This document shows positions 53,301 through 59,897 of a stretch of 64,000 nt of DNA, in pieces. The stretch spans positions 5,704,001-5,768,000 of the forward strand of contig CM102283.1 of the NCBI GenBank assembly GCA_046563655.1. Direction: 5' to 3'. Origin of the DNA: Yuukianura sp. NJ FZ-2021 (lineage: Eukaryota). Each line of letters opens with the position of its first letter. The first letter of the stretch is position 1. A model generated the notes under the pieces. That model was not told where the DNA came from. It did not search any database and saw only the letters and a program-made list of their open reading frames with translations. Made by a program: the position numbers and the translations under genes.

Positions 53301-54101
53301 GCTGCTGGTGATGCCCAATGGAAACCTTCGAGAGGACGACGTTGTAAGCTGCAACCTAACCTGAAATTGAGACTTAGGCTTTGTAGATGGATGTGTAATT
53401 TATTTTAACTGGTACATAGCATGACGTTGCTCGAATAGCTGCCCTTCTTCATCGAGCGGCAGAACTAACTCAAGCCCCGACGCTTAAGGAAACGAAGTAC
53501 TTGCTACCAAAACCAGCACTGGCGGCGCGAGATGTCAAACCAAACCAATGGGTCAATCTGGTGCAGAGTCACTGGGACGGAGTTCGTGGAATGAGTTCTG
53601 GACAGGCCAAGGCCAAGGTTTTGGGTAAGAAATCGGTTTGAAATTCAGCGGCATTTCTATCTACGGAACTCACATAAATGTGGTTTTGTTTCAATCGTAG
53701 AAATTCTGCAATCTTGGTCGCTGTTTGGCTCGAGCTTCTTTTCAGTACGGCGAATTGTGGATCCCTCACCGCCCGAGGAGTATATTATGGCTTTGAACAA
53801 AAATGGAGTCCATTTCCTGGATCCAGTGACACATGTAAGTGGATGTTTAAATTACACAGGAAAAAGATTGCAAAATTTAATCATTTTATGCAATGTTAAA
53901 CAGGAACCGCTCTCATTCTCACCTTACAACGAAATCATTTCTACTCGGAAGGTCAAAAACGAAGAAGGAGTCCTATACTTGGACCTGAAATTTGGAAATT
54001 TGATGCAGCAACGAATTAGTCGAGTTCAAACGGAACATGCTCATGAAATTTCACGTCTTATTCGAATGTATATTTATATCAAAAAGGGAATTTCAAATTG
54101 A
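44366..54101 (+). CDS. Myo15: Unconventional myosin XV (Myo10A/Sisyphus-like): motor, IQ motifs, two MyTH4 domains, FERM; about 26 exons
   Basis: [16 protein letters not shown] start, P-loop GESGSGKT (about 45362), [43 protein letters not shown] repeats, first MyTH4 ([13 protein letters not shown]), [32 protein letters not shown], second MyTH4 ([16 protein letters not shown]) and FERM to the stop at 54101. The start exon is less certain. Confidence 0.92.
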
Positions 54102-54324
54102 AACAAAGTTAATGAACATAACGATAGTTTCGACATTATACTTTAACTGTACTACAGCAGATGCAATACCGTAATTAATATCCAAGCAAAAACGTTTATA
54201 GTAAATCCGAAAATCACTTTGTATCACTAATGTCCATAGCCAAACAGTTTCTTCATTAATTGCACCAAACTTATACAAAAAAAGCTTGAGGAATCCGAGA
54301 TCCGATCCGGGTTTTAGCCAGGCC

Positions 54325-54480
54325 GGTTGGAGTCTAGTTTTGTAGTCTGTTTTTCTTTTAATCCCTGAGTTAGGTTAGGTTTGGTGTTGAAGGAGCATAG
54401 TGCGTCGTGCACTGTGTCCTGATTTCTTAACCTAACTCATGGACTGAATGAAAAACAGACTACAAAACTAGACTCCAACC
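54325..54480. mobile_element. Foldback (hairpin) MITE, 156 bp, 8-bp TSD
   Basis: Arms ggttggagtctagttttgtagtctgtttttc...tgagttaggtta and taacctaactca...gaaaaacagactacaaaactagactccaacc (about 53 bp, first 31 bp perfect). Inner hairpin agga-gcatagtgc...gcactgtgt-cct. Exact TSD gccaggcc at 54317-54324 and 54481-54488. Confidence 0.88.
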
Positions 54481-54691
54481 GCCAGGCCCCTCTTCCATGA
54501 GAAGCGGAAGACCAATAGAGTAAACGAGAGATGAGGCGGGAAGAGAGATCTGGAAGAATCAGTCAATCAGTCTCCAGCAGCATTCTTCTGTTCTTAATCC
54601 TTGGTGACAACATTACTCCAAACACACCAACCAGCACACCTTGTATCTGCCTTACACAACGTATTTAATACGATTCTTGTTGAGGTTCAGA

Positions 54692-55268
54692 ATGGGAAGA
54701 ACAAAAGCTGTCGCAAAGAAACGACCTTCAGTAAGTCTCTGAATTTGATTGATTTAGTTTTTTTTAAACGAGGTTGCTGGTGACAAATGCACTAATGTGT
54801 AACGTTTTAGGGCGAGAAACAGTCAACTAAAGAGCCAAAGAAGTTTAATGCTGATCGGGGGACAAAAGCTCTGCGAGAAATTCGCCGTTATCAAAAGACC
54901 TACTATCCCCTTCTAATTGATGTAGCACCATTCCAACTGCTGGTTCGGGTAAGTGAACAGTTGTATTTCGTGACAATAGAGAGTTATTGGACTTTTTTTT
55001 TAATTGACTAAGAAATGTTCCTAGTTTCCTAAATTTTTTTTAGTCAATTGTAGCTAAGAGTAAGTATTTTACTTTACAGGAGATAGCCCAAGACCTTGGC
55101 ACTAACGTGGGGTGGTCAACGGAATCCTTAATGTCGCTTCAGTACGCTGCTGAGGAATTTGTGGTGCGCGTCTTAGAGGATGCACATTTGTGTGCGCTTC
55201 ACGCTAAGCGTGTAACCATCATGTCCAAGGATATTCAACTCGTCCGTCGTATGCGTGGAGAACTTTAA
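54692..55268 (+). CDS. Divergent intron-containing histone H3 variant (CenH3/CENP-A candidate or novel variant), 121 aa
   Basis: Exons 54692-54730, 54811-54948, 55080-55268 (both donors gtaagt, AG acceptors, phase 0). Product [121 protein letters not shown]. Confidence 0.9.
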
Positions 55269-55275
55269 TATCTCT

Positions 55276-55477
55276 CAGATTGGCCATGACATGACGTAGT
55301 TCTGCAGCCGTAATGTATCCGACATCACCAACATCAAATACTTTGAGAACTTCTTTCATTTCCTCTTCAGTCTTCAGTGTCAGTTGCCTCAACGTGTTTG
55401 GCCATAAGTTCCAGAAATTCTGGTTCTTCAATCGTTCTAGACGCATCTACTTCGTTGATCACGTTTAGCAAATCCTT
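55276..55477 (-). pseudogene. Calmodulin-like pseudogene fragment (EF-hands 2-3 region), frameshifted
   Basis: [33 protein letters not shown] / [32 protein letters not shown] aligns to calmodulin [65 protein letters not shown]. The frameshift comes from a 7-bp duplication (cttcagt x2, 55365-55378). No start and no fourth EF-hand. Confidence 0.85.
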
Positions 55478-55677
55478 GCGTTAGGAATTGGACCTCAGGA
55501 TTTTTTACGTTAGGAATTGGACGTCACGATTTTCTGCGTTAGAAATTCGACCTCAGGATTTTCTGCGTTAGGAATTGAACGTCAGGATTTTCTGCGTTAG
55601 GAATTTCTGCATTAGAAATTGAACGTCAGGAATTTCTGCATTAGGAATTGAATGTCAGGAATTTCTGCATTAGGAAT
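55478..55677. repeat. 29-bp minisatellite (six full copies, one 15-bp truncated copy and a partial copy)
   Basis: Consensus gcgttaggaattgaacgtcaggattttct, parsed unit by unit. Short inverted ttcctaa copies follow at about 55695-55720. Confidence 0.9.
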
Positions 55678-56058
55678 AGCCTGTTTCTTATTAATTCCTA
55701 ATGTTGAAAAATTCCTAACATTAATCAGCAAATCTCCCCCCATATTCAGTTTCTACGTTTTCTTACAATTTGCCCTCTGTTTCTCCATTTCGAAATAGTT
55801 CTTAAACTATACTGCTACCGTTCAAATCAATGTCAACTTTTCCCAGATTGGACCATAAATAAAACTTGCTCTACCAAACCATTAGTTCTCTCAGTTAGAG
55901 AATGACATTCATTATCAGGAACGTTAAAAACACAGGTAGGTGAGCACTACTGGTAATGTCCGTAACCAAACAGTTTATTATTTTCACCAAACTTATACAA
56001 AAAGTTGATTTACGAATTACAGACGATATGGTTCCAATGTCTTTGTATATTTAGCCAA

Positions 56059-59897
<3,839 letters not shown>

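Follow-up and report, generated by a model that had tools for sequence, protein, structure and literature searches.

We report that a 64,000-nucleotide (nt) stretch of the genome of the hexapod Yuukianura sp. NJ FZ-2021 (GenBank assembly GCA_046563655.1, contig CM102283.1, forward-strand positions 5,704,001 to 5,768,000; hereafter the window, whose own coordinates are used throughout) carries a real, expressed, lineage-restricted and replication-independent gene for a strongly diverged variant of histone H3. We read this H3 variant as a centromeric histone (CenH3) in an unusual form, a tentative reading to which we give a little less than an even chance. It was not classed as a proven CenH3 because two diagnostic features, the residue at position 68 (Q68) and the length of loop 1, are of the canonical H3 type.

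The gene consists of three exons on the forward strand (Table 1). A preliminary description of the window, made from its letters alone, had proposed three phase-0 exons with consensus splice sites that encode a stop-free, 121-residue H3-fold protein, and both the reading of the sequence and the translation of the joined frame bear this out: all junctions are in phase 0, and the 121 joined codons contain zero internal stops and end in one terminal TAA. The gene is indeed missed by the track of open reading frames (ORFs), where it is listed merely as separate stop-to-stop pieces. The ATG at 54692 is preceded by an in-frame stop at 54605-54607, with no other ATG in between (stop-to-stop ORF 54608..54742). 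The exons have a G+C content of 47.5%, compared with 32.5% in intron 1 and 27.5% in intron 2; in H3 numbering the two introns follow the equivalents of S31 and R72.

Splicing was assessed on the assembled contigs of four sequencing runs (X1-X4), which come from one sample and one study, possibly the source of the window itself, and which were aligned to the window at 80% likeness or more. The library kind of all four runs, X4 included, is guessed as 'DNA?', none of them being recorded as RNA. One X4 contig of 1758 nt (record 28) joins both predicted splice junctions, 54730/54811 and 54948/55080, exactly. Its path comprises 54610-54728, 29 letters corresponding to the end of exon 1 and the start of exon 2 of another allele, 54856-54947 and 55079-55470; the joint 54947->55079, which skips 131 nt bounded by GT..AG (cut +1) and occurs in X4 only, is precisely intron 2. 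Neither splice joint was seen in X1-X3, where the unspliced locus was found instead, as in X1 record 5 at 54610-55363. The preliminary description had named these two junctions as the ones to look for and had taken a lack of spliced transcripts, together with a dN/dS near 1, as the mark of a recent pseudogene; both junctions are present in the X4 contig. Since this contig joins all exons at the predicted borders, the gene is, or at some past time was, transcribed and spliced. Most simply read, X4 is a cDNA-type library from the same sample, with transcription and splicing of the gene as predicted; were it DNA, the joined form would be a processed copy, which would still require a spliced transcript in the germ line. 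Position 54610 is not a mapped transcription start, as DNA contigs break there too, and we inferred nothing from the zero cover of X4 contigs in the upstream bins 54150-54239 and 54510-54599. No histone 3' stem-loop was found in 53500-57000 using Rfam with E values up to 1, the sole match being unrelated (E 0.4). Introns and the lack of a 3' stem-loop, the two criteria for a replication-independent histone gene, are thus both seen in the H3 variant. Record 28 runs a further 1131 nt past 55470 (to ~56600) and also fits the downstream copy of a direct repeat described below; the transcripts of the H3 variant and of the convergent gene for alanyl-tRNA synthetase (AARS) appear to have overlapping 3' ends, or else were co-assembled.

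The locus encodes a genuine H3-fold protein and not a chance frame. Exon 3 matched the Pfam family Histone (PF00125) with an E value of 2.1e-18 and 67.2 bits (cut-off 26.4), and exon 2 gave a weak match under the cut-off (E 0.0094, 16.6 bits). The best 60 matches of exon 3 in the Protein Data Bank (PDB) were all histone H3 chains (60/60), and the same held for exon 2. From the equivalent of G44 onward, that is over alphaN and the fold, 56 of 90 aligned positions (62%) are identical to canonical-type H3, in agreement with the roughly 56 matches counted earlier by hand; identity over the whole protein is 53-58%, with about 46% of the residues differing. The alignments to the PDB matches reproduced the residue pattern first described: F84 is replaced by W and T107 by A, Q68 is retained (PFQ), loop 1 is free of gaps, and one residue is inserted after alphaN. 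The substitutions of R63 by D, K64 by V, R69 by L, K79 by G and R83 by G, and the absence of an ARKS motif, were likewise recovered in the alignments. The further proposal that the protein would form weakly wrapped nucleosomes that are unmodifiable at K27 and K79 draws on these lost residues. Many of the substitutions within the fold exchange one hydrophobic residue for another (Y to F, L to V, F to L, I to L, A to V and I to M), and the equivalents of L109, C110, H113, D123, L126 and R129, which we take to be residues of the H3-H3' interface, are kept. The predicted isoelectric point (pI) is 9.9, versus 11.3 for one canonical-type H3. Ahead of the G44 equivalent lie 29 residues of N-terminal tail, in which the first ~20 residues of H3 are not represented. 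The tail is short, as had been stated, but not wholly unalignable: local alignments place part of it on H3 22/23-43; by manual count, 8 of 12 tail residues (3-14) are the same as in a canonical-type tail stretch of the protein P0264.

Working criteria for CenH3, in the available parts of PMC4359364, PMC7598501 and PMC8097292, are a longer loop 1, a diverged tail and the absence of Q, F and T at positions 69, 85 and 108. The last of these positions is given as 118 in the parts available of PMC4359364 and PMC8097292 and as 108 in those of PMC7598501; only 108 (T107 when the methionine is not counted) fits the way in which the other two are numbered. In the H3 variant, the RVTIM stretch still has its T. 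In two of the four fold features the H3 variant shows the CenH3 state (W at 84 and A at 107). For a survey of these residues, 239 H3-family proteins of 60-230 amino acids (aa) were aligned and 13 were dropped for gaps, leaving 226 usable proteins, or 227 rows with the H3 variant. The H3 variant has six residues between the end of alpha1 and position 84, as do 150 canonical-type rows, and its combination of Q68, W84, A107 and a canonical loop 1 is unique among the 227 rows. A107 is combined with F84 in 20 of the 226 other proteins, and W84 occurs in 18 of them, of which 14 lack a longer loop (11 of these 14 from one cluster). Single markers are thus weak as discriminators, because both A107 with F84 and W84 without a longer loop occur elsewhere in the family, but the mosaic as such is real and unusual. 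The preliminary description had called these positions the usual CenH3 discriminators: the mixture of CenH3-type and H3-type residues stood up, whereas the change of T107 to A carries little weight on its own. The control protein P0328, which has an extended loop 1 and W84, also had canonical H3 as its first match and Cnp1 only at rank 60, so that a best match to canonical H3 is no argument against CenH3.

By sequence comparison, the H3 variant is a lineage-restricted orphan on a long branch. Word-based searches of 5.8 billion proteins returned, for proteins of 110-2000 aa, nothing more than 62% identical to exon 3 (101 matches) and, for those of 34-109 aa, nothing more than 59% identical (14 matches). 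Exhaustive HMMER searching over 1.84 billion cluster representatives gave 7383 matches, of which the best 150 were at most 65% identical to exon 3 and mostly 57%, a value typical of canonical-type H3; the clusters were built at 50% identity, and a relative could sit inside a canonical H3 cluster. In a metagenome scan, 80 of 565 confirmed loci were compared and all were 51-59% identical; these 80 were apparently found through the conserved pattern HAKRVTIM, and loci with variant-specific patterns may be among the others. An intron before the EIAQD motif was absent from 77 of the 78 usable metagenome loci, which are non-arthropod genes and uninformative on the origin of intron 2. In the protein atlas, exon 3 and the protein P0047 returned generic H3 clusters only, and cluster look-ups recovered 8 of 8 and 7 of 7 proteins, with just six clusters that carried any name, all of them generic or uninformative ('histone H3', 'histone H3/H4', 'unnamed protein product'). 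A quick tree built from 187 distinct fold rows, which contains no named arthropod CenH3, gives the H3 variant the third-longest terminal branch and P0047 as its neighbor (support 0.84), a grouping that may be due to long-branch attraction. Among 34 derived fold residues, 11 are shared with P0095 and 6 with P0047. No paralog was found among the X1-X4 contigs at the likeness used, where exons 1-3 gave allelic contigs only, save for one 76-nt match to another H3 gene. No publication on a springtail centromeric histone was found in the library searched, judged by title and abstract.

The run contigs also reveal haplotype variation. Relative to the window they carry six replacement differences (A6S, S13L, S18P, P46A, T73P and L99I), two silent changes and a stop codon changed from TAA to TAG, and all aligned contigs lack an in-frame segment of 18 nt in exon 2. 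No frameshift, premature stop or splice-site loss was found in any haplotype of the run contigs or the window. Indels of 1, 2, 4, 6 and 7 nt occur in the flanks and in intron 2, and the sole coding indel is a multiple of three; seven extra bases of the window haplotype at 55364, within the gene fragment downstream, are missing from the run contigs. The 29 codons of the tail hold three replacement and two silent changes plus the six-codon indel (5 changes in 87 nt), the 92 codons of the fold region hold three replacement changes (3 in 276 nt), and the 82-nt leader has five changes plus indels, so that the fold is less variable than either the tail or the leader. This replacement-rich polymorphism fits weak constraint, with weak present constraint on the tail.

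The locus has been rearranged, and its last 76 coding bases probably either derive by copying from an H3.3-type gene or were recently shared with one. They match another gene of the organism, a low-copy canonical-type H3 gene that sits on a 1204-nt contig in X4 and that, on a manual reading of the loose contig ends, continues with canonical residues before the matching stretch and with Arg-Ala-stop after it. At least four of the seven differences are needed for the four residue changes, leaving at most three silent differences in 21 shared codons. In the ten codons upstream of 55188, by contrast, 14 of 30 bases differ from the canonical-type gene by manual comparison. The contrast between 7 differences in 76 bases within the stretch and 14 in 30 just upstream suggests that the 3' end of the gene, and only that end, has undergone recent gene conversion or has a shared ancestry. 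Contigs of the H3 type fit the window up to 55263 and those of an unrelated EF-hand type from 55271, with the last codon and the stop lying in the seven bases between. These other contigs fit 55271-55437 at 92-95% and diverge before 55271; read on the minus strand, they represent a similar copy elsewhere in the genome whose EF-hand frame runs on across the breakpoint. Together with the H3 variant, this EF-hand fragment, the tandem array that follows it and an upstream hairpin element make up a 1.72-kb block between two direct repeats, whose two copies are the only ones in the window, an arrangement that may reflect an insertion into the intergenic region between the myosin and AARS genes. We rejected the idea that the direct repeats delimit an insertion present in one haplotype and absent from another, as loose contig ends at 54281 have a simpler explanation in contigs of the downstream copy. 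The hairpin element is skipped exactly by contigs of X1-X3 (joint 54316->54481), with a summed contig depth in the thousands, and looks like a high-copy element of the miniature inverted-repeat transposable element (MITE) type that is present or absent between haplotypes.

We favor the centromeric reading on the basis of the divergence and size of the protein, its short and variable tail, W84 and A107, and prior knowledge. Monocentric arthropods normally have one CenH3, and we know of no other animal H3 variant class that is this diverged; the absence of closer relatives is expected for a fast-evolving protein. For the H3 variant we infer nucleosome incorporation, a centromeric location and weak wrapping. 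It would pair with H4 through the histone fold, whose alpha2-alpha3 core is largely retained, and would substitute for H3 in a few nucleosomes. Its altered surface on loop 1 and alpha2 (W84, F99, R102, A107 and H108) could let a chaperone or kinetochore protein distinguish it from H3, and the loss of R63, K64, R69 and R83, together with a tail cut to 29 residues, would loosen the wrapping of DNA. A number of observations weigh against a centromeric histone, however. Two of the four fold features are of the H3 type, Q68 being kept and loop 1 having exactly the canonical length, and the loss of R63, K64 and R69 is, to our knowledge, atypical of CenH3s. Tail residues 3-29 align locally onto H3 22/23-43, seven residues across the junction of exons 2 and 3 are identical to H3, and the final 76 coding bases are 91% identical to the canonical-type H3 gene. 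The stop codon lies in the junction at which the gene meets a fragment of an unrelated one, and 54-nt direct repeats flank the block as a whole; the locus looks as if it had been assembled fairly recently, unlike that of an old, stable, essential gene. Across the haplotypes, 6 replacement changes at 276 sites and 2 silent changes at 87 sites give a ratio of ~0.95; with counts of 6:2, a ratio of 0.1, as for a strongly constrained gene, is unlikely (binomial estimate ~0.004) and one of 0.3 is compatible. The library kind of X4 is only guessed, so the joined form could also be a processed DNA copy instead of RNA. The evidence is divided between the two roles: Q68, the canonical loop 1, the stretches that resemble H3, a 3' end of the H3.3 type and the rearrangement of the locus favor a younger variant derived from H3.3.

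Such a protein would be a lineage-specific, non-centromeric variant that arose from an H3.3-type gene, for example as a germline- or stage-specific form, and that makes unstable or specialized nucleosomes or acts off chromatin, with W84 and A107 being convergent or incidental. We consider this a serious possibility, at clearly less than even probability. Besides the retention of Q68 and of the loop 1 length, it is supported by the tail, which aligns to H3 22-43 with S13 opposite position 31, by the 91% identity at the 3' end next to 14 of 30 differing bases just upstream, and by the formation of that end at a rearrangement junction in a block between direct repeats. An orthologue is absent from all protein and metagenome search results; A107 with F84 (20/226) and W84 without a longer loop (14/226) show that the markers are unspecific, and other mosaic variants exist, P0095 sharing 11 of the 34 derived fold residues. 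Against it, the protein is only 53-58% identical to H3, unlike the lineage-specific animal variants known to us (primate and rodent testis forms), which stay more than ~85% identical; a young origin is hard to square with less than 80% nucleotide identity outside the last 76 bases, and by prior a single strongly diverged H3 of an arthropod is usually its CenH3. A further scenario, which we hold to be rather doubtful, is that the H3 variant is not an ancestral CenH3 but an invention of the hexapod lineage: an H3.3-derived copy would have been rebuilt at the rearrangement junction while still exchanging sequence with H3.3, would have gained the CenH3 hallmarks W84, A107 and the loss of R83 independently while keeping Q68 and the short loop 1, and would then have taken the place of the old centromeric histone or given rise to a new class of loosely wrapping, non-centromeric nucleosomes.

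It is also conceivable, if unlikely, that the gene is a transcribed but functionless relic, a partial H3-type duplicate truncated at its 3' end and drifting toward a pseudogene, with a frame left open by luck or by recent origin. The replacement-to-silent ratio of ~0.95, the addition or removal of proline by P46A and T73P, the six-codon deletion allele as the sole form in the runs, the loss of four basic DNA-contact residues, the replacement of the native stop codon by one in junction filler, and the lowered net charge (pI 9.9 vs 11.3) would all fit such a relic. Pure decay is nevertheless unlikely, because ~46% of the residues have changed without a stop, frameshift or splice-site loss in 121 codons of any haplotype, because the sole coding indel is a multiple of three while the flanks and intron 2 have indels of 1, 2, 4, 6 and 7 nt, and because the gene is spliced; moreover, variation is lower in the fold than in the tail or leader, and many fold substitutions are hydrophobic for hydrophobic. 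By a rough estimate, not a computation, neutral drift would leave such a frame open a few times per hundred, with indels uncounted. We regard as highly improbable an assembly artifact in which the H3-like and EF-hand-like parts form a chimeric join absent from the animal. The abruptness of the junction and the absence of the 18-nt segment at 54838 from all aligned run contigs would be in keeping with one, but the junction is spanned by X1 record 5 (54610-55363), X3 record 18 (54759-55388) and X4 record 28 (55079-55470), contigs from a single sample and study that is possibly also the source of the window.

The other genes in the window (Table 1) make up an ordinary content for a compact animal genome. 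The protein of the neighboring AARS gene is closest to P0105 (69.9% over tblastn pieces) and then to that of the springtail Orchesella dallaii (64.5%), with all other proteins, those of named insects included, at 60.1% or less, which makes a springtail or another early-branching hexapod the probable host. The downstream copy of the direct repeat includes TTTATT, which would read AATAAA for this convergent gene.

Table 1. Features of the H3-variant locus and its surroundings (window positions; kb where indicated)
Feature	Position	Strand	Remarks
C2H2 zinc-finger gene	6.4 kb	-	
LIM-homeobox gene	30.6-32.5 kb		
Reprolysin/ADAM-type gene	41-43 kb		
MyTH4 myosin gene	45.7-54.1 kb		
Direct repeat, upstream copy	54228-54281	+	54 nt; 46/54 identical (85%) to downstream copy, E 3e-13
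Hairpin element (MITE-like)	54317-54480	.	54-nt inverted arms, 93% complementary; 50-nt loop
Minimum 5' untranslated region	54610-54691	+	without ATG; X4 record 28 begins at 54610
Exon 1	54692-54730	+	13 codons from ATG; start of N-terminal tail, GRTK after Met; followed by GTAAGT
Intron 1	54731-54810	+	80 nt, GT..AG; spliced out in X4 record 28, retained in X1-X3 contigs
Exon 2	54811-54948	+	46 codons; preceded by TTTTAG, followed by GTAAGT; remaining tail, alphaN, most of alpha1; Q68; one-residue insertion
In-frame 18-nt indel	54838-54855	+	codons 23-28; in window, missing from all aligned X1-X4 contigs
Intron 2	54949-55079	+	131 nt, GT..AG
Exon 3	55080-55268	+	62 codons and TAA; preceded by TTTACAG; end of alpha1, loop 1, alpha2, loop 2, alpha3; W84, A107
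H3-gene-like coding end	55188-55263	+	76 nt, 91% identical (7 differences) to low-copy canonical-type H3 gene of same organism; records 19, 29
Junction, H3-like/EF-hand-like	55264-55270	+	7 nt; last codon and stop
Truncated EF-hand (calmodulin-like) gene fragment	55271-55476	-	Pfam EF-hand_6, E 9.3e-05, below cut-off; antisense in 3' untranslated region of H3 variant
Tandem array	55477-55677	.	29-nt unit, about 7 copies; directly after EF-hand fragment
Direct repeat, downstream copy	55954-56003	+	in 3' untranslated region of convergent AARS gene
AARS gene	56.06-59.9 kb	-	coding sequence ends near 56065
PTH2 gene	61 kb		
Two-pore-type ion channel gene	62-63.5 kb		

If the H3 variant is a true springtail CenH3, a working centromeric histone can do without a longer loop 1 and without a change at Q68. 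Genome screens that use these two features could then miss CenH3s and wrongly call lineages CenH3-less, which bears on the debate over the loss of CenH3 in insects. If it is non-centromeric, it is, for an animal H3 variant, unusually diverged and poor in DNA-contact arginines, and its apparent H3.3-type 3' patch and origin at a rearrangement junction would provide a worked example of the birth of a histone variant. Whichever role it has, the gene belongs in the annotation.

Compared with H3.3, the H3 variant likewise has introns and lacks a 3' stem-loop, shows 91% identity to a canonical-type H3 gene over its last 76 coding bases, and has a tail motif that lines up with H3 22-31 and places an S, which is polymorphic (S13L), opposite position 31. 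Unlike H3.3, it differs from H3 at ~46% of its residues, has no counterpart of the first ~20 tail residues and lies on a long branch (third of 187). H3.3 carries a signature at positions 31, 87, 89 and 90, where H3.2 has a pattern of its own; the H3 variant has E, L and M at 87, 89 and 90, which is neither the H3.3 nor the H3.2 pattern, and it lacks the near-identity and the signature by which an H3.3 is recognized. With CenH3/CENP-A it shares the replacement of F84 and T107, a fast-evolving, variable tail and the absence of close relatives in sequence searches. It differs from them in lacking R63, K64 and R69 and in having a 3' end whose DNA is almost that of a canonical-type H3 gene, as well as in keeping Q68 and the canonical loop 1, both of which are diagnostic in the available parts of PMC4359364, PMC7598501 and PMC8097292. 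The cCENH3 of Tribolium castaneum, in the part of PMC7598501 at hand, is encoded by a 378-bp gene and is a 14.2-kDa protein with 51% fold identity to H3; the H3 variant is similarly small and short-tailed (121 aa) and has a fold identity in the same range (62%), but its gene has two introns where that of Tribolium is given there as one 378-bp stretch. Drosophila Cid, in the available parts of PMC5435080 and PMC8200288, has lineage-specific CenH3 duplicates that relocate and specialize. The H3 variant resembles these paralogs, as far as they are described there, in that it, too, is an H3-fold gene of restricted lineage and rapid evolution whose locus looks recently rearranged, and differs from them in that no paralog of it was seen among the X1-X4 contigs. 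Finally, P0095, P0047, P0348 and P0320, from environmental or Logan assemblies, also mix H3-type and CenH3-type states, such as W84 without a longer loop 1 or A107 with F84, whereas only the H3 variant combines Q68, W84, A107 and a canonical loop 1.

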